IMG/VR virus record: IMGVR_UViG_3300025723_000032
Coordinates: 3,368 to 67,367 of that record
Reading direction: 5' to 3' (one strand)
DNA from: a virus
Lineage: Duplodnaviria > Caudoviricetes
Length of the DNA: 64,000 bases
Shown here: one piece after another, positions 13,939 through 64,000 of the stretch
Layout of the letters: the number at the start of each line of letters is the position of its first letter
Position numbering within the stretch: the first letter of the stretch is position 1
Program-made: the position numbers and the translations under genes
The notes under the pieces: generated by a model
Database searches by the model: none
The model's input: the letters and a program-made list of their open reading frames with translations, nothing else
Told to the model about the DNA's origin: nothing

Positions 13939-14089
13939 TTAATTCATCCATTCTTTGTTTAATTGCTATTCCCAATCCCTTAAACATTCCGGTTGGATCG
14001 TTTTCCAACTCTTTCACGCGTTGCCTAACGTAATCAATCCAACCGGGCTTAAGTGCTAAACGCGCGTAATGTTCAACCGGATCAAGCAT
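13913..14089 (-). CDS. Small conserved protein (58 aa, not in ORF track)
   Basis: MLDPVEHYARLALKPGWIDYVRQRV...; homologue at 48593-48760. Confidence 0.65.
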   Translation of the reverse strand: MLDPVEHYARLALKPGWIDYVRQRVKELENDPTGMFKGLGIAIKQRMDELNVSCDISG

Positions 14090-14792
14090 TGTTTTTGATC
14101 ATTTTAAATTTTGCTTTCACATCATCGGGCATGGCCACGGCGTTTTTAGCATCGTTTTCTAACTTAATCAGGATTGGATCGCGCCCAATCGTGCTAGGCA
14201 CCGTTTGGTGAATAACATCAACTTTTGGCAAAACCCATTCGGCTTTGAATGTTGACCAACCACGCTCACAACAAATCTTGATCACCTCATCTATGGTCAA
14301 GTTGGCTTTGGCCGCCTCCGCCTGAATTGATGCGATCAATGTTTCGGTTAGTGTTTTGTTTTTGGCTTTTAAAACTTTTTCAAAATCCGTATATATATGG
14401 TTATTGGTTACTGGTTCTTGGTTATTGGTTGCTATTGGGGTGGCATTGGGGGGGCTATGGGGTGGCCATAGGGGGGCTATGGGGGGGCTATTCCAACGTT
14501 TAGCCGCACCACGTTTACCGGCGTTACTTAACTCACGATATTTTGCAATTTCCTCATCCGCCCGCGGGTGAATATATCCATCGGGTGTATCGTGAAAAAA
14601 TTCATTTAAAACGGAAAGAACATCTTGTTCGTATTCAAGCATTCCAATTTGCCTAGCAATATTTCTTTGCTTAATCGGCGCTTCATGTAAATAGTAATGA
14701 TCAAGCAAACGCCGAAAAGCTATATCTTCAATGATCGTTAAATGATGGGTGTGGGATTTGTAATCCCCAATATGGAAATTGTAATAGTGCAT
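14082..14792 (-). CDS. Replication initiator-like protein, DUF1376/YdaU family
   Basis: MHYYNFHIGDYKSHTHHLTIIEDIAFRRLLDHYYLHE N-terminus; internal iteron-like repeats. Confidence 0.8.
   Translation of the reverse strand: MHYYNFHIGDYKSHTHHLTIIEDIAFRRLLDHYYLHEAPIKQRNIARQIGMLEYEQDVLSVLNEFFHDTPDGYIHPRADEEIAKYRELSNAGKRGAAKRWNSPPIAPLWPPHSPPNATPIATNNQEPVTNNHIYTDFEKVLKAKNKTLTETLIASIQAEAAKANLTIDEVIKICCERGWSTFKAEWVLPKVDVIHQTVPSTIGRDPILIKLENDAKNAVAMPDDVKAKFKMIKNNA
14401..14492. repeat. Iteron-like repeats, probable origin inside the initiator gene
   Basis: Repeated GGGGGGCTAT and GGGGTGGC units next to a TTATTGGTT/CTGGTT repeat; lambda O-type arrangement. Confidence 0.6.
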
Positions 14793-14794
14793 AT

Positions 14795-14894
14795 AACCTT
14801 ACGTTTTTCGGTTTGCGTTAAAAAGAAAACATCGGCAGGACGGTAACGAATCGTCTTTTCGGGAGCTACCCTAGCCGCGTTTCAAATCATTATA
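14795..14894 (-). ncRNA. Structured leader upstream of the initiator gene
   Basis: Extended -10 TGaTATAAT (14889-14897), then CGGCtAGG/CCTGCCG outer stem with GGG/CCC and GACG/CGTC inner stems and a T-rich tail. Confidence 0.45.
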
Positions 14895-16482: not shown

Positions 16483-16685
16483 TGACAAAAGAACAAGCCA
16501 ACCTAATCCTAGATCAAGTGCGGGTTGGCATTCAATATCCCGCACACATCATCAACCAAGCACTAACAATCACAGGTGATTTAAATGGAAAGATACCACA
16601 GAACAACGAAAGACGCATTTCCGAATACTATGGAATATGGGGCTTGCATAGAGAAACCGATTCGCAAGATGTTTACGAAACTTGA
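16482..16685 (+). CDS. Hypothetical protein
   Basis: Conserved at 50509-50712. Confidence 0.55.
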   Translation: MTKEQANLILDQVRVGIQYPAHIINQALTITGDLNGKIPQNNERRISEYYGIWGLHRETDSQDVYET

Positions 16686-16749
16686 ATTGTTTGCATACGC
16701 AATTGCAATTGTTGTCATTATGTTAGATATGTTTGTGTGGAGGCCATGA
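16585..16749 (+). CDS. Small C-terminal TM protein (54 aa, not in ORF track)
   Basis: MERYHRTTKDAFPNTMEYGACIEKP...LDMFVWRP; homologue at 50612-50776. Confidence 0.65.
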   Translation: MERYHRTTKDAFPNTMEYGACIEKPIRKMFTKLELFAYAIAIVVIMLDMFVWRP

Positions 16750-16750
16750 A

Positions 16751-16945
16751 ATGAATAGATTTGAAAACATTGTTAAAAATTGCGATGACGCAATGGCCCA
16801 ATACCAATTCAAAAGCAATTACGCATTTGAAAGCGGATATTACAAATTACAAGTTGAATCACTTTGCAAGGAAATTGAATTTTTGCAACAGGAATTGGAA
16901 TCAACGATTGAGCAAATCAAAGAAATAACAAAGGATTTCGCATGA
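16751..16945 (+). CDS. Hypothetical coiled-coil protein
   Basis: Start corrected to MNRFEN; positional and partial similarity to 50776-50964. Confidence 0.55.
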   Translation: MNRFENIVKNCDDAMAQYQFKSNYAFESGYYKLQVESLCKEIEFLQQELESTIEQIKEITKDFA

Positions 16946-17511
16946 AAAACATTTCAACAGCATTGGTTAAAGCACAAAAGGCATTTAACCCCGCGCTAAA
17001 GCAATCCATCAACCCACACTTTAAATCACGCTATGTTGATTTGGCGGGGTGTGTGGAGGCGGTGATTGATGCGCTAAACGATAACGGAATATTCTTATTA
17101 CAAAAAACCTACGAATGTGCGGATGGCGTGATTGTGGAAACAATCTTTATCCACGAAAGCGGCGAAAGATTGGAATGCGGTATGTTGCATTTCCCCGCCG
17201 TTAAGGCCGATCCACAGGGCTACGCATCGGCATTAACCTATGCGCGGCGCTATTCGCTTATGGCCGCGTGCGGGATTGCACCGGAAGATGATGACGGAAA
17301 CCACGCATCCAAGAAAGTGGAAACAAAGATTGTTAGCCACGTTAATGTTAAAGAATTGGATAAGCTAATCGAAAAGATGCGCCACGCGGAAAATCAGGAA
17401 CAATTAGTGGCATCGTATCGAATAGCATTTCAGGCGTGCCAAAGCGAAAAAGCACACCAAGATCGCGTGATTGCCGTTAAAGACGAAATGAAAGAAAAGG
17501 TGCCCGCATGA
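16942..17511 (+). CDS. erf: ERF-family single-strand annealing protein
   Basis: NPHFKSRYVDL and DPQGYASALTYARRYSLMAACGIAPEDDDGN motifs. Confidence 0.9.
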   Translation: MKNISTALVKAQKAFNPALKQSINPHFKSRYVDLAGCVEAVIDALNDNGIFLLQKTYECADGVIVETIFIHESGERLECGMLHFPAVKADPQGYASALTYARRYSLMAACGIAPEDDDGNHASKKVETKIVSHVNVKELDKLIEKMRHAENQEQLVASYRIAFQACQSEKAHQDRVIAVKDEMKEKVPA

Positions 17512-17657
17512 TGAATAGTGATTACGCCGCGGAAAGCGATTATTGGCGCGAACAAGATGCAATCGAAAACGCGTATCGAAACGAATTGCTAAAGCACCCA
17601 CATTGCCTTGATCCGGATCACCCCGGATGCGAAAAATGCGAGGTTAACGATGATTGA
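17508..17657 (+). CDS. Small Cys/His protein (49 aa, not in ORF track)
   Basis: HPHCLDPDHPGCEKC motif; homologue at 51527-51670. Confidence 0.65.
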   Translation: MMNSDYAAESDYWREQDAIENAYRNELLKHPHCLDPDHPGCEKCEVNDD

Positions 17658-17979
17658 TGAAAGAATCCAAATCATGTTGTATCACGAAAGCCAATTTAGT
17701 GATGAATTCTTTAGTTGGTTTCCGAACAACGAACACATTTACGATGCTTTTCAACACGAAACAATGAAAATCATTCGCAAAGGCTATAAGCACTATTCGG
17801 GGCGCACGATCTTGGAGGTGTTAAGGCACCATTCGGCACTTAGCGAAAATGGGATTTGGAAATTGAACAACAACCACACGCCTTATCTTTGCCGATTGTT
17901 TGCCTTGATGAATCCTAGATATGCGGATATTTTTGAATACCGCACCGTTAAAAAACCCAAATTAAGATTGGCCGAATGA
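17650..17979 (+). CDS. Conserved hypothetical phage protein
   Basis: 109 aa from MIDERIQ, nearly identical to 51663-51992. Confidence 0.7.
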   Translation: MIDERIQIMLYHESQFSDEFFSWFPNNEHIYDAFQHETMKIIRKGYKHYSGRTILEVLRHHSALSENGIWKLNNNHTPYLCRLFALMNPRYADIFEYRTVKKPKLRLAE

Positions 17980-18191
17980 TGAAAAAAGTTAAACAAAAAA
18001 CAAAAGAACAATTGCACGAAGAAATTATGCAATTATTTGTGGGGCAAGAAATGTCAACCACGTTGGCGGCATTGATTGAAACAATGGTTGGTGTGTCAAA
18101 TTTCATGGAAATTGAAAGATACGATGTGATCGATATGGTTGTTGCCGAATTAAACATTTATAGGGATATGGAAAATGAAAACATTGTTTGA
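17976..18191 (+). CDS. Hypothetical protein (unit A only)
   Basis: Coupled overlaps, helical, no counterpart in B. Confidence 0.5.
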   Translation: MMKKVKQKTKEQLHEEIMQLFVGQEMSTTLAALIETMVGVSNFMEIERYDVIDMVVAELNIYRDMENENIV

Positions 18192-26754: not shown

Positions 26755-27999
26755 ATGTCAAACAATTTATTGACGATATCAAAAATCACAAATGAAGCTC
26801 TTATGGTGCTCGAAAACGAATTGACGTTTACGAGCGAGGTGGACCGCAATTACGATGATCAGTTCGCAGTGGTCGGTGCAAAAATCGGTAACACGGTTAA
26901 TGTTAGACGTCCCGGACGCTTCATTGGTACCACAGGCCCCGCGCTAAACGTTGAGGATTTCAACGAAACTAGCGTGCCCGTGACACTAAGCACCCAGTTC
27001 CATGTGGACACGCAGTTCACGACCCAAGACTTAGCGCTAAGCCTCGACATGTTCAGCGACCGAGTTTTGAAACCCGCTGTGGCCGCCATAGCCAATAAGA
27101 TAGACCGTGATGGATTGGTGATGGCTAAAAACAATACCGCAAATATTGTTGGCACGGCCGGAACACCGCCCACAGGTTTGATCACATATCTAACCGCCGC
27201 GGCTTATTTGGATGCGGAGGGCGCACCCCGTGATGGCCGCCGGTCTTGTATTGTGGAGCCATTTACATCGGCAACCATTGTTGATTCACTAAAAGGCTTG
27301 TTTGTTCCACAAGAGGCTATCGGTGAGCAATACAGGAAGGGGTTGATGGGCAGGGACAGCGCGGGGATGAATTGGAAAATGGACCAGAACGTGGTTAGCC
27401 AAACCTTTGGCAATAGCCCTACGGCCGTTTTATCGTGCAATACAAGCACCGCAACGGGATTTTTGACATCAGGATGGGCACAGACATCAACAATCGCACT
27501 AAGCGCCACTACGGCCGCCGGTCAATTGAATGTTGGTGATGTGATTCAGATTGCAAACGTCTACGCCGTTAACCCACAAAACCGCCAAGCCTATGGTAGC
27601 AACAAGCTAAGAAACTTTGTTGTCACCGCGGCCGCCACGGTTGCCACAAGCGGCACCACTAGCGTCACCGTTAGCCCCGCCGTTATCACCGCCGGTCAAT
27701 TCCAAAACGTTAGCGTGACAAGTGCGGGCGCAAGCACCGTGACACCATTTAACAATAGTGGCACCGTTTCACCCCAAAACATAATCATGCACCGTAACGC
27801 TTTCTGCTTGGCCGTGGCGGATCTCGAGCTACCCGAGGGGGTGCACTTCGCGGGCCGTGCAAGCGATAAAGAAATCGGCCTTTCCATGCGTGTGGTACGT
27901 CAGTACACCATCAACAATGATTCGATTCCAACCCGTTTGGATGTCTTATATGGATGGGCACCGTTGTATCCCGAATTGGCTTGCCGTGTTGCGGCTTAA
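26755..27999 (+). CDS. Major capsid protein, P22 coat (gp5) family, intronless allele
   Basis: 414 aa; KIGNTVNVRRP and RLDVLYGWAPLYPELACR motifs; follows scaffold. Confidence 0.9.
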   Translation: MSNNLLTISKITNEALMVLENELTFTSEVDRNYDDQFAVVGAKIGNTVNVRRPGRFIGTTGPALNVEDFNETSVPVTLSTQFHVDTQFTTQDLALSLDMFSDRVLKPAVAAIANKIDRDGLVMAKNNTANIVGTAGTPPTGLITYLTAAAYLDAEGAPRDGRRSCIVEPFTSATIVDSLKGLFVPQEAIGEQYRKGLMGRDSAGMNWKMDQNVVSQTFGNSPTAVLSCNTSTATGFLTSGWAQTSTIALSATTAAGQLNVGDVIQIANVYAVNPQNRQAYGSNKLRNFVVTAAATVATSGTTSVTVSPAVITAGQFQNVSVTSAGASTVTPFNNSGTVSPQNIIMHRNAFCLAVADLELPEGVHFAGRASDKEIGLSMRVVRQYTINNDSIPTRLDVLYGWAPLYPELACRVAA

Positions 28000-28879: not shown

Positions 28880-29227
28880 ATGGCCGGATCAACCGTTCAA
28901 CGCAACGCGGGTCAGACGTATTGTCTTAGCGTCACCAATAGTGCCCATGCAAGCACTTTGATTGATGATCAGACAAACGATCAGATCAACTTCTGCTCAT
29001 TCCTAAACACGGGCGCATCGCCCATTGCGGTTAAGTTTGCGAATTATTCGCCATGCCCCGCCGCAACGTTTCCGAGTGATGGAACACCAGGGGATTATGT
29101 TTTGCCTGCGGGTATGACTTCTCCCCTTATCTTGGCAACACCAACCACGCCCTTTTACATGACGGCAATTAGTAATAGTGGCACGGCGGGTTTGCTTTAT
29201 GTAACGGCCGTTGGCGATCAAAGCTAA
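28880..29227 (+). CDS. Virion structural protein
   Basis: 115 aa; near-identical at 63583. Confidence 0.65.
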   Translation: MAGSTVQRNAGQTYCLSVTNSAHASTLIDDQTNDQINFCSFLNTGASPIAVKFANYSPCPAATFPSDGTPGDYVLPAGMTSPLILATPTTPFYMTAISNSGTAGLLYVTAVGDQS

Positions 29228-29228
29228 C

Positions 29229-31724
29229 ATGGTTGGCCCTAACAAAACTGTTGACCAAAACCTACTGCCCGTTCAGGCGTATTTTGCGGTCGATGGCACG
29301 TTTCAGACCTTTATCGGTCAGGGCCAACCTTTCACGGCCACAATCAGCCCTATTCAAAGCGGGCTAACAATCACCAATAGCACCCTAGATTCAAGCCCTA
29401 TTGGGGCTACAACGCCATCTACGGGGGCTTTTACAAGCATATCCACAACAACGGGCACGATCACCACATCGCCCGCTAATTCAACGGATATTGCCAATAA
29501 ATATTATGTGGATATGGTTGCCCAAGGGCTTGGCCCAAAGGCGGCGTGCCAAGTTGGAACAACCACAAACATCACGCTTTCGGGGCTACAAACCATTGAT
29601 GGATACACCACATTAACTGGTGATCGGGTTTTAGTCAAGAATCAAAGCACATCATCACAAAACGGCATCTATATTGCGTCATCAACGGCTTGGGCACGGG
29701 CGGTTGATATGGATGTGTGGGCGGAGGTTTCGGGCGCTTACACAGTGCTTTTAAACGGCGGACAAGCCGATACGGGATGGGTTTGCACGGCATCACAAAC
29801 GGGCACAATCGGTGTCACCGCAATGCCTTGGGTGCAATTTAGCGGATCGGCAACGTATTATGCGGGCACGGGGCTAACGCTATCATCCAATACATTTAGC
29901 ATCACCAACACGGGTGTCACGGCCGCAAGCTATGGATCGGCAAGCCAAACAGTCACTTTTGTGATTAACGCCCAAGGCCAAATCACTAGCGCAACATCAC
30001 AGAATATTGCTATTGCGGCATCACAAATCACAAGTGGCACGATTTCATCTAGCCTTGTAAGCGGGTCTTACACGGGAATCACGGGTGTTGGCACGCTAAC
30101 GGCGGGCACTTGGAATGCAAGCACCATAGCGGTGGCCTATGGAGGCACGGGGGCAACAACGCTAACGGGGTATGTTTACGGCAACGGCACGGGTGCTATG
30201 ACGGCCGCAACAACGATTCCAACAACCGCGCTTAGTGGCACGATTACTAACGCACAATTGGCCAATTCCACAATTTCGGGCGTGGCTTTGGGTGGAAATC
30301 TATTTGCTTTAACGATTGGATCAAATCTAAGCGGCACAAGTTATAACGGATCAAGTGCGGTGACGATTTCAAACACCGCGCCAATGGTTTATCCCGCATC
30401 GGGGATACCCAATTCAACCGGATCGGCATGGGGATCATCTTATTCAACAAGTGGATCGGGATCGGTTTTAGCATTGGCAACGGGCGCAAGCCTAGCAAAC
30501 CCGACTGTTTCTAATTACGCGACATTTACGCCCCAATCATCTTTGCCCAATTACGCACAGGGCGAATTGTTTTATGACCAAGCACAAGATGCCTTGGCTT
30601 ACTACAACGGCGTAACGAATAATGAATTGCACATTGGGCAAGAAATTCAATTAAAGGTTTACAACAACACGGGATCAACAATCAATGTTGGCCAACCCGT
30701 TTACATCACTAGCACATCTAGCGGATTTATTTATCCTTGCGTGGCTTTGGCCATTGCTAATAGCCTAACCACGGCCAACGTGATTGGATTGGCAAATCAG
30801 GCTATTCCAACGGGCACGGCGGGCTATGTGACCACGATTGGGGTTGTATCGGGTGTTAACACGGGCACTTATACAGTTGGTGACACGCTTTATTTATCGC
30901 CTTATTCGGCGGGCTATTATCAAAACACCATACCGCCCACGGGCTATGCCGTCAAAATTGGCACAGTTTCTTATGTAAATTCTAGTGGCCAAATTTACGT
31001 CAACAAAAGCAATTTGTCGGTTCAAGCGGGCAATATTGTTGGCCAAGTGGCTATAACGAATGGCGGCACAAACGGCACGGCAACACCCACGGCGGGTGCG
31101 GTTGCTTACGGAACGGGCACGGCTTACGGATTCACGGCGGCGGGCACAAGTGGCCAAGTCTTACAATCCAACGGATCAAGTGCGCCTAGTTGGGTGTCAC
31201 CAACGGCCTACGCAACAGTCACCGATGACACCACAACAAACGGCACGCGATACCCATTATTTGCCAACCAAACGGCGGGTAATTTAAGCACCGAATACAC
31301 ATCTAGCACCAAGCTACAATTTAATCCTAGCACGGGCGTATTTACGGCCACACAATTTAGCGGATCGGGTGCGGGGCTAACATCCATTCCCAATTCGGCA
31401 CTTAACAATTCTAGTGTGACAGTTGGGACAACGGCTATTTCGTTGGGATCATCGGCCACAACGATTGCGGGGCTTGTATCGGTTACTAGCACCACGTTTG
31501 TGGGCGCTTTAACCGGCAATGCAAGTAGCGCCACAACGGCCACAACGGCCACGAATGCAACAAATATAGCAATTACGGATAACACAAGCACTAACGCAAC
31601 GTATTATCCCGTGTTTGTATCAAATTCAAGCGGAAATAATGCCGCCACAACATCATCAACAAAGTTAAAATATAACCCATCCACGGGTGCGTTGTATGTT
31701 TCCGCAATTTATATTGCGCCATAA
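29229..31724 (+). CDS. Long tail fibre protein
   Basis: Start MVGPNK; DIANKYYVD and TTNITLSGLQTIDG...DRVLVKNQ fibre motifs; Thr/Ser/Gly-rich. Confidence 0.8.
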   Translation: MVGPNKTVDQNLLPVQAYFAVDGTFQTFIGQGQPFTATISPIQSGLTITNSTLDSSPIGATTPSTGAFTSISTTTGTITTSPANSTDIANKYYVDMVAQGLGPKAACQVGTTTNITLSGLQTIDGYTTLTGDRVLVKNQSTSSQNGIYIASSTAWARAVDMDVWAEVSGAYTVLLNGGQADTGWVCTASQTGTIGVTAMPWVQFSGSATYYAGTGLTLSSNTFSITNTGVTAASYGSASQTVTFVINAQGQITSATSQNIAIAASQITSGTISSSLVSGSYTGITGVGTLTAGTWNASTIAVAYGGTGATTLTGYVYGNGTGAMTAATTIPTTALSGTITNAQLANSTISGVALGGNLFALTIGSNLSGTSYNGSSAVTISNTAPMVYPASGIPNSTGSAWGSSYSTSGSGSVLALATGASLANPTVSNYATFTPQSSLPNYAQGELFYDQAQDALAYYNGVTNNELHIGQEIQLKVYNNTGSTINVGQPVYITSTSSGFIYPCVALAIANSLTTANVIGLANQAIPTGTAGYVTTIGVVSGVNTGTYTVGDTLYLSPYSAGYYQNTIPPTGYAVKIGTVSYVNSSGQIYVNKSNLSVQAGNIVGQVAITNGGTNGTATPTAGAVAYGTGTAYGFTAAGTSGQVLQSNGSSAPSWVSPTAYATVTDDTTTNGTRYPLFANQTAGNLSTEYTSSTKLQFNPSTGVFTATQFSGSGAGLTSIPNSALNNSSVTVGTTAISLGSSATTIAGLVSVTSTTFVGALTGNASSATTATTATNATNIAITDNTSTNATYYPVFVSNSSGNNAATTSSTKLKYNPSTGALYVSAIYIAP

Positions 31725-31733
31725 GGGGAAATC

Positions 31734-33377
31734 ATGGGAAATTTAGTATTTCAAGCGGCATCAGGCGGTCAGGTTGCACTAAGTGGCCCAAACACCGCAA
31801 GTAGCTATACGATTGCCGTGCCCGCCGTTTCTGGCACTTTTGTCACAACGGGTGACACTGGCACAGTTACGACAACCATGTTGGCAAGCACCACAGGATC
31901 GGGTGCGGTTGTATTGGCCACTAGCCCCACATTGGTGACACCGGCATTAGGAACGCCATCTAGCGTTACATTGACAAACGCAACAGGATTGCCTATATCA
32001 ACAGGATTAAGTGGCTTAACAACGAATGGCGTGGCCTACGCTACAAGTACAAGTGCTTTGGCTACTGGGTCTGCGTTGACTTTTAGTGGAGGCAATTTAC
32101 TTTGTACTGGTGCAATAACATCTAATAATACTGTTACAGCGCAATTAGATGGTTCTGATTCAGCAGGTGCAGGTGCAGGTTTTAATCTATTTAATAGTGG
32201 CTTCTCAAGAGGTTGGAGACAACAATTAAGTGCAAGTAATAACATAAACACTTATTATTTCAATGGTTCTTCTTATGTTTTATCCACAACTTTAAATACA
32301 TCAGGCAATCTAGGTATAGGTACAAGTAGTCCTAGTCAACCATTAGATGTAAATGGTGCTTCTAACATATTAAGTTACATTGGATTTAATAAAGGTGGAA
32401 CACAAGCATATATTGGCAGAGCATCTGATTTAGTTGCAGGCGGTTATGCAACCAATGATGTTGGCATACAAACAGTAGGTAAGTTTGTTGTTGCTACTGG
32501 TGGTGGTACTGTTACCATGAATTTAGATAACAATGGCAACTTAGGATTAGGAGTTACTCCTAGTGCTTTGTCTTTAAGTGGATACAAAGAATTAGAAATA
32601 GGTTCGATTGGTAATGGACTTCTTTCTGGCACTAATGATTTTATCTCAAAAACAAATGCCTATTACAACTCAGGGTGGAAGTACGCAACCTCTGGTTATC
32701 AAGCATCTATTTACGAACAAAATGCTGGTCAGCATATTTGGCAAATTGCTAGTTCAGGCACAGCAAATAACGCTATATCCTTTACTTCAGCAATGACACT
32801 AGATAATAGTGGAAGATTGTTGGTGGGGACTACAAGTGCTAATGGAAAATTGGCTGTGCTTGCTAGTGCTGATCCAGGAGGATTTAGTTTTAACACTTCA
32901 CTCATCAACAAATGGTCTGGTGACACTTCTAAATTTGGTCTTTATATTGGTAAATACGATAATGACAACACAACATCGCAAAGATTTATTGGTTTTTCAA
33001 TTAACAACGATTTAACAGCTTGTGGTCAAATTAACGCAAATGGAGCTGGTGCTGCGGCTTTTGGTTCGTTTTCTGATGTTCGTTTAAAAGAAAACATTGT
33101 TGATTTGCCTTCGCAACTTTCAAACATCATGGCATTGCATCCAGTAGAGTTTGATTACATTGCATCTGAAGGTGGAGGTCATCAAACTGGTTTTGTGGCT
33201 CAAGAAATTCAAAAAGTTTATCCTGATGCAGTTGGTGAGCGTAGTGATGGAATGCTAACAGTAACAGGTTGGAGTAAAACAGAAGCACGACTAGTCAAAG
33301 CCATTCAAGAACTCAACACCCTTGTCACAACCCAATCCGCTGAGATAGCGGCACTTAAACAGAAAGTAGGTATCTAA
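31734..33377 (+). CDS. Tail fibre / receptor-binding protein with C-terminal intramolecular chaperone (peptidase S74)
   Basis: GNLGIGT repeats; SDVRLKENI...GFVAQEIQKVYPDAV chaperone motif. Confidence 0.85.
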   Translation: MGNLVFQAASGGQVALSGPNTASSYTIAVPAVSGTFVTTGDTGTVTTTMLASTTGSGAVVLATSPTLVTPALGTPSSVTLTNATGLPISTGLSGLTTNGVAYATSTSALATGSALTFSGGNLLCTGAITSNNTVTAQLDGSDSAGAGAGFNLFNSGFSRGWRQQLSASNNINTYYFNGSSYVLSTTLNTSGNLGIGTSSPSQPLDVNGASNILSYIGFNKGGTQAYIGRASDLVAGGYATNDVGIQTVGKFVVATGGGTVTMNLDNNGNLGLGVTPSALSLSGYKELEIGSIGNGLLSGTNDFISKTNAYYNSGWKYATSGYQASIYEQNAGQHIWQIASSGTANNAISFTSAMTLDNSGRLLVGTTSANGKLAVLASADPGGFSFNTSLINKWSGDTSKFGLYIGKYDNDNTTSQRFIGFSINNDLTACGQINANGAGAAAFGSFSDVRLKENIVDLPSQLSNIMALHPVEFDYIASEGGGHQTGFVAQEIQKVYPDAVGERSDGMLTVTGWSKTEARLVKAIQELNTLVTTQSAEIAALKQKVGI

Positions 33378-34172: not shown

Positions 34173-34670
34173 ATGAAAACGCCAACACTTTTTCCTACGC
34201 AAGAAGAATTAAAGTCAAAATTTGATTATATTGACGGCAAACTTGTATGGAAAATTAAAACAAAAAGGGCCAATGTTGGCGATTTAGCTGGAACATTGCA
34301 TCCTAATGGTTATATGAGAACTGGATTAAATGGCCATTGTCATTTGAATCACAGATTAATTTTTATGTGGCATTATGGTTTTTTTCCTGAAATAGTTGAC
34401 CACATTGATGGAAACAAATTAAACAATTCAATAGAAAATTTACGACCAGCAACACAAATTCAAAATCAACAAAATCAAAAAATACGCAAAGAAAACACAT
34501 CAGGCTATAAAAATGTTTCTTTGTGCCCACAAACAAAAAAATGGAAAGTTTCCATAAAATTAAATGGCAAAGATATAAGATTTGGTCGTTTTGACGATAT
34601 TGAATTGGCAGATTTAGTAGCTCAAGAGGCTAGGGCTAAATATCATGGCGAATACGCAAGGAATCATTAA
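34173..34670 (+). CDS. Free-standing HNH homing endonuclease with AP2-like C-terminus
   Basis: HRLIF...VDHIDGNKLNNSIENLR motif; NTSGYKNV...WKVSI...GRF DNA-binding tail; AT-rich. Confidence 0.9.
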   Translation: MKTPTLFPTQEELKSKFDYIDGKLVWKIKTKRANVGDLAGTLHPNGYMRTGLNGHCHLNHRLIFMWHYGFFPEIVDHIDGNKLNNSIENLRPATQIQNQQNQKIRKENTSGYKNVSLCPQTKKWKVSIKLNGKDIRFGRFDDIELADLVAQEARAKYHGEYARNH

Positions 34671-35645
34671 ATGGCCACTACCCCGATAGATATAATAACC
34701 TCATCATTAAAAGACATTGGCGCATTGGCTGCTGGAGAAACTCCTACGCCTGAAGCTGCTCAAGATGCGTTCGTAATGATGCAACGCATGATTGACCAAT
34801 GGTCTAACGAGCAGATGATGGTGTTCTATAAGACAGAAATCATTTACACACTCACCCCAGGTCAAACCCAGTACACAATTGGCCCTGGCGGTGAGATCGG
34901 TGCAACCTTTACAGGATCAATCACCAACAACATTCTCACAGTCACAGCCATCACCCAGGGCGCTATTAGCCTAGGAATGACCCTATCAGGCACAGGTGTC
35001 ACAGCTGGGACTAAGATCACAGGATTCTTAACAGGCGCAGGCGGTAACGTTAACGAGTTGGGCACATATCAGCTCAACCTATCGCAAAACGTGGCTTCAA
35101 CAACGATTAACGCCTTTTATCAGCGCCCCCTCAGCATCAATTCGGCATTTGTACGCATCAACACCTCACAAAGTGGCGTACCCATCCTAAACGGCGGTCT
35201 AGACTATCCCGTGGCCATTTTGAACGTAGAAGACTATGAAATGATTGGTCTTAAAACGTTAAACGGACCTTGGCCAAAAGCACTCTACTATCAACCAACC
35301 GAGACACTAGGAAACATCTTTGTCTGGCCAAACCCAGCACAGGGTGAAATGCACATTTTTGCCGACACATTATTCAGCAAGTACACCACAATCAACGACA
35401 CAATGCTACTGCCAGAAGGCTTTGAGAGCTGTCTAGAATGGTGTTTAGCTGAACGTTTAATGCCCCAGTATGGCAAAGCATCAGCCACGCAAATATCAAT
35501 GATTAACGCTTTTGCAGCGCAGGGCAAAAGCACGATCAAGCGCACAAACATGAAGCCTGTTCAGTCGGCTAGGTATTCTGATGCTTTGTTGATGAGCAGG
35601 GCAAAAGATGCCGGCTGGATCTTGTCCGGCGGCTTTTTTAGGTAA
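34671..35645 (+). CDS. Head-tail adaptor, P22 gp4-like, with inserted beta module
   Basis: N-terminus [22 protein letters not shown]...MIDQWS; position before gp10. Confidence 0.75.
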
Positions 35646-35646
35646 A

Positions 35647-36279
35647 ATGTTTTACATTTATCAACACCACAAAGCAGACACCAACGATATTTTTTACGTT
35701 GGGAAGGGTAAGGACAAGCGTCTGAACTCTAAAAGAGGTCGCAATCAATATTGGCACAATGTTGTTGATAAGCATGGATTTGTTGCAAAGGTAATTGCAG
35801 ACAATCTTGACGAAGAATTAGCATTTTTGTGTGAGATGGAGGCCATTGATCTTTACAAAAGAATCGGCATCCAACTTGTAAACGCAACAAATGGTGGTGA
35901 AGGTGCTTCAGGTTACAAACATACTGATGAGCATCGTGAAAAAATGAAGAATAATCTGTATTGGAGTTTTGCTAAAGAAAATGGTTTTAAAGGCAAAACC
36001 CATTCAGAAGAACAAAGAGAAAAGTGGAAAGAAACTCGCAAAGGCACACCTAGCCCAAGAAAAGGTGTAACTTTATCTAACGAAACAAAGCAAAAAATAA
36101 GTCAAGCTAGAACAGGAATGATTGTTAAAGCTAGACGAGTTTTGACTGACGAACAAGTTAAACAAATTAGAATTGAGCTTAAAACTGAAAGAATGGCAGT
36201 TCTTGCTAGAAAATACAATGTTGGCGAGACAACCATTAGCAGAATTCGAAATAACGAACGTTATCAGGATGTCACATAA
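35647..36279 (+). CDS. Free-standing GIY-YIG-type homing endonuclease with NUMOD3-like repeats and HTH
   Basis: FYIYQH...FYVGKG, E...[10 protein letters not shown]; [12 protein letters not shown] and [14 protein letters not shown] repeats; absent at the A locus (663-673). Confidence 0.8.
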
Positions 36280-55122: not shown

Positions 55123-55265
55123 TGCCACTCATTAAATCCACTAAAAAAGAAGCATTTAAAAAGAATATTGCAACAGAGGTCAAGGCTGGCAAACCAGTCA
55201 AGCAGGCCGTGGCCATTGCATACTCTGAGAAACGTGAAGCAGCCAAAGCCAAAAAGAAAAAATGA
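55122..55265 (+). CDS. Small basic protein (47 aa)
   Basis: Homologue of 21665-21811. Confidence 0.7.
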
Positions 55266-56149
55266 TCCATCCGTTAAAAAGTTTGGTTACGATGGGGGCA
55301 GTTGGTATGCCAGGTGCAGACCAGCCCGCTCAAGATGGAAACAATCCATTCATTAAAAACCAAGCTCAAGCAGCACTTTTTGCCAGGTTATCCCAAGAAT
55401 TCCCAAACTTAATCAAAGAATATTCAAGCCTACCCGATACTGAAGGTGGGAAAATATTAAATACTGATATTGCTAGGGAATTAAGCCCAGAATACCGAGA
55501 AGACAGGACTAGGGCTGCTGAAGTACACGAACCCGCCAGTACATTTACCAAAAGCCTTTATTCGCACAAGTTGGCGCAACCAACACCAGAAGGACAAGAT
55601 TCAAGGGTTTTGTTTACAGCTGGAGGAGCTGGTGCTGGTAAATCAACTGCCCTAGAAAACGTAAAAGCATTAAACAGTAAAGCCAAAAAATCAGAAATTA
55701 TTTATGATACAAACATGGACAAACTGGATAGCGCAGAACAAAAGATAAAACAAGCGCTAGATGCTAAACGCAAGGCCATGATCATGTACACCTACAGAGA
55801 ACCCGTAGAAGCATTGGTTAATGGCGCACTTAAGCGAGCTAATAGCATGGAAAAGAAGTATGGATCAGGCCGAACAGTCCCATTATCAACACATTTGAAA
55901 ACACATTTAGGGGCTAGAGAAACGATCCAAGCATTGCACGAAAAGTACAAAGACCATCCAGACGTAGAAATAAGAGCAATTGACAATTCACGCGGATTGG
56001 GAAAAGCCAGACAGATAGCGATTGAAAAACTGCCAAAATTAAACCCTGAACAATTAAGGAGAGAATTACATGATGCCCTCGAACAAGAATACGCCGATGG
56101 AAAAATATCCCACGCCATCTACAAATCAACCAAAGACTACTCCATCTGA
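55262..56149 (+). CDS. Zeta-toxin-like P-loop kinase (unit B only; start uncertain)
   Basis: [12 protein letters not shown] Walker A, IIYDTN strand, ILNTDIARE and R...GRTVP segments typical of the zeta/AAA_33 kinase fold. Confidence 0.7.
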
Positions 56150-60962: not shown

Positions 60963-62705
60963 ATGAGTAATAATCTCTTAACGATATCCAAGATCACCAA
61001 CGAGGCGTTGATGGTTTTGGAAAACGAGTAAACAGTTTGCTCCCTTATGCGGTAACGCATATTGAATAACTTTCTCTGATTGACTTGGAACTCTGGCAGC
61101 AGACAACAAGGGGCAAGCGAAAGCAGCCTGAACGACTAAGTGAGAAAGCTCCTAGAAATAGGATGATGCGATAGTCTGAACTACCCTATAACAAAAGAAG
61201 GGGTAGAGGAGAATCCGAAGAGGTTTTCCCGCCTAGAAATAGGTCACTAAAGTAACAGAATGTAACTTTTACAAGTGAAGTTGACAGAAACTATGACGAT
61301 CAATTCGCCGTTGTCGGTGCAAAGATCGGTAACACAGTTAACGTTCGCAGACCAGGCCGTTTCATCGGTACTACTGGCCCAGCATTGAACGTTGAGGACT
61401 TTAACGAGTCTAGCGTACCCGTGACTTTGTCAACCCAGTTCCATGTGGATAAACGTATGTCCACATATCAAGACGCTTCCTTTCTAATAGCGGCTTGATT
61501 GGCAAAATTCTTCCTGATTGACTTGGAAGCCCTGCGGAGGGCGACAGGGGGCAAGCAAGAGAAATCTGTGCAGCCTGAACGACTAAGTGGAAGAACCTAG
61601 AAATAGGATGCGATAGTCTGAACTTTGGTATAACCTAAAAGAAGCCAGAGAGTTTGATCCGAAGCGGTCGAACCGCCCGAAAGGGTCAGTAAGCGAAAGC
61701 TGAAGTAACAGAATGACACAATTCACAACTCAGGACTTGGCATTGTCTTTGGATATGTTCTCTGACCGCGTGTTGAAACCCGCTGTGGCAGCAATTGCTA
61801 ACAAAATTGATCGTGATGGCTTGGTGATGGCCAAGAACAACACGGCCAATATCGTTGGTACAGCTGGTACACCTCCCACAGGTTTGATCACATATTTGAC
61901 CGCTGCTGCTTACCTTGACGCTGAAGGCGCACCAAGGGATGGCCGCCGTTCATGTATCGTTGAACCTTTCACAAGCGCCACAATCGTTGATTCTTTGAAG
62001 GGTCTATTTGTACCCCAAGAAGCCATCGGCGAACAGTATCGCAAGGGTTTGATGGGTCGTGACTCTGCTGGTATGAACTGGAAGATGGATCAGAACGTTG
62101 TTTCACAAACATTCGGTTCTTATTCGACTGCCGTGTTGTCATGCAATACATCGACTGCAACTGGATTCCTGACCTCTGGTTGGGCATCAACTTCTACTAT
62201 CGCTTTGTCTGCCACAACAGCCACAGCATCGTTGAACGTTGGTGACGTTATCCAAATTGCTAACGTGTACGCTGTCAACCCCCAGAATCGCCAGGCTTAT
62301 GGTTCTAACAAGCTACGCAACTTTGTCGTGACTGCTGCCGCTACTGTGGCAACATCAGGTACAACTAGCGTGACTGTTAGCCCTGCCGTGATTACTGCTG
62401 GTCAGTTCCAGAACGTGTCTGTGACCAATGCTGGCGCATCAACTGTTACGCCTTTCAACAATACTGGTACTGTGTCACCACAGAATATCATTATGCACCG
62501 CAATGCGTTTACATTGGCAGTGGCCGATCTTGAGTTGCCAGAGGGTGTCCACTTTGCTGGTCGCGCTTCTGACAAAGAGATTGGTTTGTCCATGCGCGTG
62601 GTTCGCCAGTACACCATTAACAATGACAGTATTCCAACCCGTTTGGATGTCTTGTACGGCTGGGCACCGCTCTATCCTGAACTCGCTTGCCGTGTTGCAG
62701 CTTAA
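60963..62705 (+). CDS. Major capsid protein split by two introns: join(60963-61029, 61263-61450, 61716-62705)
   Basis: Exons of 67+188+990 nt give 414 codons plus stop, colinear with the unit-A coat (ENE-L-TFT and HVD-TQF junctions). Confidence 0.92.
61030..61262 (+). ncRNA. Group I intron 1 (Twort/IA2-like, ORF-less, 233 nt)
   Basis: 5' exon ends in U, intron ends in G; P3 TTTCTC/GAGAAA, P7 GACTA (61134)/TAGTC (61172), P8 CCTA-GAAA-TAGG; ends GTAACAGAATG. Confidence 0.9.
61451..61715 (+). ncRNA. Group I intron 2 (Twort/IA2-like, ORF-less, 265 nt)
   Basis: P1: exon ATGTGGAT pairs with intron GTCCACAT with U.G at the splice site; P3 TTCTTCC/GGAAGAA; P7 GACTA (61581)/TAGTC (61614); terminal G. 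Confidence 0.92.
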
Positions 62706-63582: not shown

Positions 63583-63930
63583 ATGGCTGGTTCAACAGTC
63601 CAACGCAACGCGGGTCAGACGTATTGTTTTAGCGTCACCAATAGTGCCCATTCAAGCACTTTGGTTGATGATCAGACAAACGATCAGATCAACTACTGCT
63701 CATTCCTAAACACGGGCGCATCGCCCATTGCGGTGAAATTTGCGAATTATTCGCCATGCCCCGCCGCAACGTTTCCGAGTGATGGAACACCGGGGGATTA
63801 TGTTTTGCCTGCGGGTATGACTTCTCCCCTTATCTTGGCAACCCCAACAACGCCCTTTTACATGACAGCGATCAGTAATAGTGGCACGGCGGGTTTGCTT
63901 TATGTAACGGCCGTTGGCGATCAAAGCTAA
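63583..63930 (+). CDS. Virion structural protein
   Basis: Near-identical to 28880. Confidence 0.65.
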   Translation: MAGSTVQRNAGQTYCFSVTNSAHSSTLVDDQTNDQINYCSFLNTGASPIAVKFANYSPCPAATFPSDGTPGDYVLPAGMTSPLILATPTTPFYMTAISNSGTAGLLYVTAVGDQS

Positions 63931-63931
63931 C

Positions 63932-64000
63932 ATGGTTGGCCCTAACAAAACTGTTGACCAAAACCTACTGCCCGTTCAGGCGTATTTTGCGGTCGATGGC
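63932..64000 (+). CDS. Long tail fibre, N-terminus (3' truncated by window edge)
   Basis: MVGPNKTVDQNLLPVQAYFAVDG, identical in DNA to 29229-29297. Confidence 0.8.
   Translation, partial: MVGPNKTVDQNLLPVQAYFAVDG

Follow-up and report, generated by a model that had tools for sequence, protein, structure and literature searches.

Sequence evidence that the major capsid gene of a P22-like podophage contains two ORF-less group I introns

Phage capsid genes are already known to harbor group I introns. Published examples are those of lactococcal phage Tuc2009 and mycobacteriophage LittleE, and a 265-bp ORF-less intron was reported from the tail gene of BAKA; splicing of the LittleE and BAKA introns was shown by RT-PCR (PMC3706429). 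In crAss-like phages of the Delta and Zeta groups the capsid gene is interrupted up to four times, and three of the interruptions carry endonuclease-type domains (PMC7886860). ORF-less introns can be moved by free-standing endonucleases, a process called collaborative homing, and direct evidence for mobility by reverse splicing was still lacking according to the same 2014 review, the case resting mainly on related rDNA introns that occupy different sites (PMC3984707). An earlier note on the DNA studied here had counted only a few late-gene cases, naming Twort orf142. That example stands, with several small ORF-less introns in one late gene as in our phage, but the prior art was understated, as Tuc2009, LittleE and the crAss-like capsids illustrate.

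As in Tuc2009, LittleE and BAKA, the gene analyzed here is a virion gene in which a U precedes the 5' splice site and the intron ends with G, and one of its introns is, like that of BAKA, ORF-less and 265 bp long. However, the described genes contain one intron each, and that of LittleE carries an endonuclease ORF, whereas our gene contains two introns, both ORF-less. A BLAST search of the first intron against GenBank phage records showed no similarity to Tuc2009, LittleE or BAKA. The coat gene family shares with the crAss-like phages a capsid gene split by up to four group I introns and an annotation confounded by them. The crAss-like introns were recognized through their endonuclease domains, whereas the introns of the family described here are 214-281 nt long and without ORF. 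Their hosts also differ, being P22-type coat genes of roughly 35-kb podophages with many polymorphic sites. Capsid-gene group I introns are therefore already known; what is new is an unannotated family of compact, ORF-less introns that scores below the Rfam threshold, is concentrated in virion genes and occupies many alternative insertion sites.

The coat genes and the record

The window, i.e., the whole stretch of 64,000 nt that was analyzed, covers most of a 67,367-nt IMG/VR record and contains two diverged P22-like podophage copies of about 34.5 kb arranged head to tail. Terminase, P22-type portal, scaffold and coat genes are present in each copy (A and B), and the copies are about 72-78% identical in DNA genome-wide. 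The coat gene of copy A (26755-27999, + strand) is uninterrupted and represents the empty-site allele. Its 414-aa product matched positions 1-420 of the 423 positions of PF11651 at 121 bits, in accordance with a P22-type coat protein.

The coat gene of copy B is located on the + strand and consists of exon 1 (60963-61029, 22 codons plus 1 nt), intron 1 (61030-61262, 233 nt, after CDS nt 67), exon 2 (61263-61450, 188 nt), intron 2 (61451-61715, 265 nt, after CDS nt 255) and exon 3 (61716-62705, 329 codons plus the stop). Exons 1 and 2 both end with U, and the introns end with G at 61262 and 61715. Joining the three exons gave a 1245-nt ORF encoding a P22-type coat protein of 414 aa, which aligned without gaps to that of copy A (403/414 identical, 97%). 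The same excision, with the same U and G at the junctions, had been proposed in the earlier note. A blind boundary script, given the intronless protein and the rule that the exon ends in T and the insert in G, returned exactly 61030-61262 and 61451-61715 as its single best solutions. By DNA comparison alone the boundaries of intron 1 are unique, while that of intron 2 can slide by one position (61451 and 61716 are both A), and its coordinates were chosen by the rule of U before and G last.

In unspliced RNA, the last exon U followed by AA of the intron creates a UAA that ends the reading frame at codon 23 (ORF 60963-61031), as the earlier note had read it; the frame entering intron 2 runs 16 codons into P2 and then meets UGA. 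The largest ORF overlapping either insert encodes 47 aa on the minus strand, thus neither insert can encode a protein, which agrees with the ORF-less state claimed before. No intron-encoded endonuclease ORF was present in the ORF list for the 233- and 265-nt inserts. An ORF finder recovers only exon 3 of the copy B gene, as a 330-aa ORF (61713-62705), and this is the truncated capsid that had been expected from gene callers. Exon 3 alone matched positions 90-420 of PF11651 at 96 bits. Neither target-site duplication nor terminal inverted repeats were seen at the insert junctions.

Several other readings of the inserts were rejected. Lengths that are not multiples of 3 and in-frame stops do not fit an intein, translational bypass or group II introns; the inserts are also too long for a translational hop and too short for group II introns, with no domain V-like element. 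A special recoding of the intronless allele at homing sites was rejected as well, since the two coat genes show a uniform identity of 0.63-0.83 over the whole CDS and the genome-wide identity of the copies is about 72-78%.

The longest exact repeat of the record (127 nt, 29171-29297 and 63874-64000) ends exactly at the record end, and the first 796 nt of the record are 94% identical to window positions 31198-31993. Judged from these repeats, a repeat-mediated assembly join of two co-occurring phages would fit at least as well as a real heterodimer. The two units also differ in composition. Unit A (1-29170) has no GCAGC or GCTGC in 29 kb, compared with about 1.0-1.5 per kb in unit B (34901-64000), and its CAG, CTG and GTAC are roughly 3- to 18-fold rarer. 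Synonymous differences between the coat genes amount to 0.845, above random expectation, and suggest systematic recoding of unit A. The introns contain 1-2 GCWGC sites and about 40 CWG per kb and would therefore reintroduce motifs absent from unit A. The sole Rfam match above threshold in the window was an int-alpA RNA (14815-14881, - strand, 43.8 bits) just upstream of a DUF1376 gene (14082-14792). Unit B alone has a zeta-toxin-like P-loop ORF (55262-56149; PF06414, E 1e-11) upstream of its terminase gene.

RNA structure and covariation of the introns

In both introns the helices from P3 through P9.2 follow the canonical order and include the P3/P7 pseudoknot of group I introns, in which P4-P6 and the 5' strand of P7 lie inside P3, and P3' and P8 lie inside P7. 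In intron 1 (+ strand), P1 (61026-61032/61036-61042) pairs GAGU|AAA with UUUGCUC. It is followed by P2 (61046-61051/61056-61061), P3 (61070-61076/61142-61148), P7 (61134-61138/61172-61176), P8 (61150-61154/61159-61163), P9 (61181-61187/61200-61206), P9.1 (61208-61215/61222-61229) and P9.2 (61231-61235/61240-61244). In intron 2 (+ strand), P1 (61443-61451/61458-61466) pairs AUGUGGAU|A with UGUCCACAU, the exon part AUGUGGAU pairing with the guide GUCCACAU, and is followed by a long P2 (61467-61499), P3 (61508-61514/61589-61595), P7 (61581-61585/61614-61618) and P8 (61596-61599/61604-61607). In both introns the U before the 5' junction forms a U.G wobble in P1 with the internal guide, and the terminal (omega) G belongs to the conserved 3' end GUAACAGAAUG. 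GAAA loops cap P8, in both introns, and P9.2, and P9.1 has a conserved CGAAG loop.

The cores of the two introns are 78% identical. Their P3 helices differ by four compensated pairs (CUUUCUC/GAGAAAG vs UUCUUCC/GGAAGAA), while P7 is GACUA/UAGUC in both; the compensatory changes, the P7 strands and the GAAA-capped P8 had all been noticed before and were found again here. Minimum-energy and centroid folds recovered P1, P2, P3, P4, P5, P6, P8, P9, P9.1 and P9.2, with z-scores of -2.7 and -2.6 for the two introns. The in-frame stops of both introns are located at or before P2, so that ribosomes on unspliced RNA would be expected to stay out of the intron core, like in the T4 introns.

The Rfam group I model RF00028 has a gathering score of 50 bits, which is a threshold of the model and not a defining property of the class. 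At this threshold, no group I match was obtained in the whole window. In a search of 901 nt, intron 1 matched the full model (61020-61199, 27.8 bits, E 6.6e-5), which assigned P1 with its U.G, P2, P3, P4, P5, P6 and P8 to the same helices. In this full-length alignment ACGACUAAG and GAUAGUCU of intron 1 match the consensus AGACUAAA and AUAUAGUCU, and the consensus junctions J3/4, J4/5, J6/7 and J8/7 and the G-binding P7 are present by sequence match. Intron 2 had no match, and a permissive Rfam search of it alone returned only noise. The covariance-model hit that the earlier note had looked for was thus obtained for intron 1, below 50 bits, but not for intron 2. None of about 35 family members in 18 related loci was found at threshold, and the 18 loci gave two weak matches in a permissive search (24.7 and 21.2 bits). 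As a control, three Twort orf142 introns were found at 64-101 bits, and further Twort matches, which are likely introns too, scored 23-47 bits and fell below the cut-off. Since the model misses the whole family and scores some Twort matches below threshold, the Rfam result reflects a gap in sensitivity and not a refutation. The sensitivity of RF00028 is uneven, and the capsid intron family lies outside its comfortable range.

The helices P7.1 and P7.2 are markers of subgroup IA2. These extra helices between P3' and P8 were not found in the present family: in 28/28 aligned introns, unlike in Twort, P8 (4-8 bp) is the single hairpin that separates P3' from the P7 3' strand. The intron ends had been called Twort-like. 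The Twort orf142 introns do end with ...CGUAACAUAAUUG and, like the present family, contain AUAGUCUGAAC in the P7 3' strand and finish with a 3' terminus of the form GUAACA..AAU..G, but no other similarity was detectable. The profile similarity is negligible (E 0.01 over 65 nt), and the family reaches 28 bits at most on RF00028, compared with 64-101 bits for the Twort introns. P7.1/P7.2 have been used as class markers (PMC3984707), and because both these helices and P5abc are absent, the family is not of the Twort/T4 IA2 type.

A structural alignment was made of 28 capsid introns from 18 contigs, onto which the group I helices were written and the pairs counted. Standard pairs occupied 96.5% of 1211 cells, compared with 36-45% in controls in which the 3' partners were slid by 1-3 columns. 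Both sides had changed in 24/44 pairs. The covariation score was 0.53, against 0.05-0.11 in the slid controls, and was reached by 0/500 shuffles. Pairs with double changes were distributed over P3 (6/7), P5 (3/5), P6/6a (3/6), P9 (5/6) and P9.1 (6/8). P4 (CUUG/CARG) and P7 (GACUA/UAGUC) were invariant and both match the Rfam consensus; as they never vary, they are beyond the reach of covariation. P8 covaries by eye only and was left out of the pair count because its alignment columns were misaligned. An nhmmer profile together with these pair counts sufficed for the analysis. In a search of both strands of the 64 kb, a profile built without the window sequences matched only introns 1 and 2 (E-values 6e-39 and 1e-42). 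The exact restoration of the ORF, the site-specific P1 with its U.G, the terminal G, the folds, the covarying pseudoknotted core and a homologous element that splits a ribonucleotide reductase gene of Roseobacter phage CRP-118 support the identification of the two inserts as ORF-less group I introns of the major capsid gene, in accordance with the earlier note.

Insertion sites, guides and host genes of the family

Resolved introns of the coat family were located after CDS nt 67, 116, 135, 143, 153, 160, 255, 326, 614, 1061, 1146, 1157 and 1172, giving at least 13 sites, of which the nt-160 boundaries are imprecise. Boundaries near nt 102, 151-160 and 1133 that could not be resolved, and a site "187" of contig L236, were excluded from the counts. 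P1 is the most telling feature, as its guide varied with the insertion site across 12 site classes of the relatives. The guide was GCUC at nt 67, GUCCACAU at nt 255, GCGGC at nt 116, 326 and 1061, GCCGAUUU at nt 135, GUGCCA at nt 614 and GUGG at nt 1157 and 1172, with a G opposite the last exon U at each of these. Cognate P1 helices had a mean of 5.6 bp and non-cognate ones of 3.9 bp, a descriptive comparison that discriminates weakly because several sites share CCGU. Five coat-gene sites share [G/U]CCGU together with the guide GCGG. The introns at nt 1157 (L139:4225-4517) and nt 1172 (L203:3281-3573) are up to 92% identical in the core and have the same guide UGGUGG and P1 extension; the two sites are 15 nt apart, and their exon contexts share CCAU only. 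Comparison of these two introns provides circumstantial evidence for guide-directed ectopic transposition.

The survey of relatives for the same sites, as the earlier note had advised, recovered both of them. The nt-67 intron recurs in L233, L235 and L236, and the nt-255 site is occupied in GenBank genome MW202674.1. L235, from another sample, carries the same two introns, and its spliced CDS is identical to that of copy B. L233 has both sites occupied plus a third. Three introns per coat gene were found in L094, L122, L203, L206 and L233, and four in L236 (IMGVR_UViG_3300032117_000188), where one boundary could not be resolved. L018, with 91% exon DNA identity, has neither of the copy B introns and one intron at nt 1157, and most of the recovered relatives are intronless.

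MW202674.1 (L005) is a 36.6-kb circular podophage genome from Manatee Spring with a homologous 268-nt insert at the nt-255 site. In its GenBank annotation, region 16569-18084 contains two CDS named "P22 coat protein" and, within the intron, a "hypothetical protein"; this coat gene in pieces bears out the mis-annotation predicted in the earlier note. In Roseobacter phage CRP-118 a homologous core lies between two ribonucleotide reductase CDS and has its own cognate P1, AAAUCCGU/GCGGAUUU. These two genomes were the only meaningful matches of intron 1 in a BLAST search of GenBank phages; two 28-nt matches to Aeromonas phages were probably due to chance.

A conserved-core pattern scan of IMG/VR viral contigs detected at least 120 loci. 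Among the matches listed, 32 host genes belonged to the P22-type coat family and about 40 to a second, unrelated major head family, phrog_9953 (E 1e-97), which Pfam does not recognize. The introns of the latter lie near the 3' end of the gene, e.g., L089:1487-2461. Other host genes encoded ribonucleotide reductase, P22-type and SU10-type portal proteins and one Microviridae F capsid protein. In 185,579 species genomes 14 matches from many phyla were detected, including a tape-measure gene on the Sporomusa aerivorans chromosome and ribonucleotide reductase genes. The Microviridae case is a family member of about 200 nt (L193:496-695) on a Microviridae-sized contig of 4,456 nt (IMGVR_UViG_3300016715_000001), where it splits the F major capsid gene (PF02305, E 2e-76). 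Its P1 is a perfect 7-bp helix (CUUCAAU/GUUGAAG) with U.G at the junction, its 3' end is GUAACAGAGUG, and the joined exons read ...RSHFN|VISPDMRLQRPEY. A literature search found no published description of a group I intron in a microvirus. Within about 2 kb each, L114:5022-7032 and L091:159-1541 contain 4-6 full or partial matches to the core profile, and these clusters may be arrays of intact and decayed introns. As far as these sequences represent it, the family preferentially occupies virion genes and has a nearly invariant P4/P7 core, with covarying P3, P5, P6, P8, P9 and P9.1.

Splicing, spread and alternative explanations

The coat genes of copy B and L233 differ with dS 1.36 and dN 0.14, and the dN/dS of about 0.1 indicates purifying selection. 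Since a coat gene incapable of expression would not be maintained in this way, selection on these intron-bearing alleles argues strongly for removal of the introns in vivo. A scan of metagenome contigs for the exact spliced junctions of copy B gave no match, which is uninformative. The explanation we favor, with a probability of about 0.88, is that the copy B coat gene contains two ORF-less group I introns that are spliced out to yield the 414-aa coat protein and that belong to a large phage-borne intron family. Excision from the late mRNA would follow the standard two-step, guanosine-initiated reaction, and most simply the introns would be selfish passengers, tolerated because they splice well. 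For introns that encode no endonuclease, the default route of spread would probably be inheritance together with recombination between co-infecting relatives. Occasional ectopic insertion at sites matching the internal guide of 4-8 nt probably adds to it, as suggested by the nt-1157/nt-1172 pair and the five sites sharing CCGU. Both catalysis and mode of spread are inferred here from sequence comparison. Free-standing HNH_3 and NUMOD3 endonuclease genes (34173-34670 and 35608-36279) flank the adaptor gene of copy B, indicating that this copy is generally rich in selfish elements. Such a combination with ORF-less introns resembles collaborative homing; however, these genes are not adjacent to the coat gene, and cutting of the capsid sites by their products is unsupported.

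Dependence on a phage or host maturase or chaperone, in place of true self-splicing, would be in line with the small size of the introns (214-281 nt) and the absence of a P5abc-type stabilizing extension, yet we regard it as unlikely. Compact bacterial tRNA introns of similar size, about 200-250 nt, self-splice; the GAAA loops of P8 and P9.2 and the CGAAG loop of P9.1 could serve as tertiary contacts, and no maturase-like ORF was found nearby. A regulatory role, which is compatible with group I identity and would add a function to it, is quite unlikely in our view. By this account the introns form an adaptive gate, with splicing efficiency tuning capsid output in response to GTP, Mg2+, translation or stress. 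The earlier note had suggested a gate on assembly sensitive to GTP, Mg2+ or stress, for which the sequence comparisons gave no support. Both introns do lie early in the most highly expressed late gene, within its first 255 nt, unspliced RNA would terminate at codon 23, and T4 intron splicing reportedly depends on growth state and on translation (Sandegren and Sjoberg 2007, cited in PMC10914365). However, intron presence is polymorphic even among close relatives such as L018, most relatives do without introns, and the 0-4 introns per gene are spread over at least 13 alternative sites. Such a distribution points to selfish gain and loss and not to a conserved regulator, and Rfam scans of the window and the intron region found no riboswitch or other sensor.

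Decay of the inserts, as MITE-like elements or dead introns that leave copy B a coat pseudogene in a defective phage, could account for the sub-threshold Rfam scores but is very improbable. The exons are all intact, with a product 97% identical to that of the intronless copy; strong purifying selection acts between intron-bearing alleles, the same architecture is found in independent samples, the catalytic core is kept with compensatory changes, and the junctions have no target-site duplications or terminal inverted repeats. Mis-assembly of the metagenome deserves mention because the record itself looks like two genomes joined through a repeat, but as a source of the inserts its probability is close to nil: the identical gene with both inserts occurs in the independent contig L235, homologous inserts occur in at least 120 contigs and a GenBank genome, and the boundaries obey group I rules.

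A further reading goes beyond the selfish introns favored above. The introns would belong to an undescribed ORF-less group I clade, undetected by Rfam and specialized in virion genes, which relocates ectopically by guide matching as in reverse splicing. This possibility is put forward tentatively. It draws on a 1.2-kb coat gene family in which at least 13 sites are occupied and a single gene can carry as many as four introns, on the 92% identical introns 15 nt apart that share only CCAU, on the five CCGU sites with guide GCGG, and on the copy in a 4.5-kb microvirus capsid gene. If true, no better natural data set would exist for studying how introns transpose under RNA guidance in a protein-coding gene. 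The many close ORF-less copies of the family at different guide-matching sites offer a tractable test of movement by reverse splicing.

Because gene callers and Rfam miss these introns, the capsid genes of an abundant environmental podophage group are annotated as fragments, which distorts capsid-based phylogenies, protein clustering and completeness estimates. The results also indicate that a phage intron lineage can reside mainly in virion genes, and not only in genes of nucleotide metabolism.
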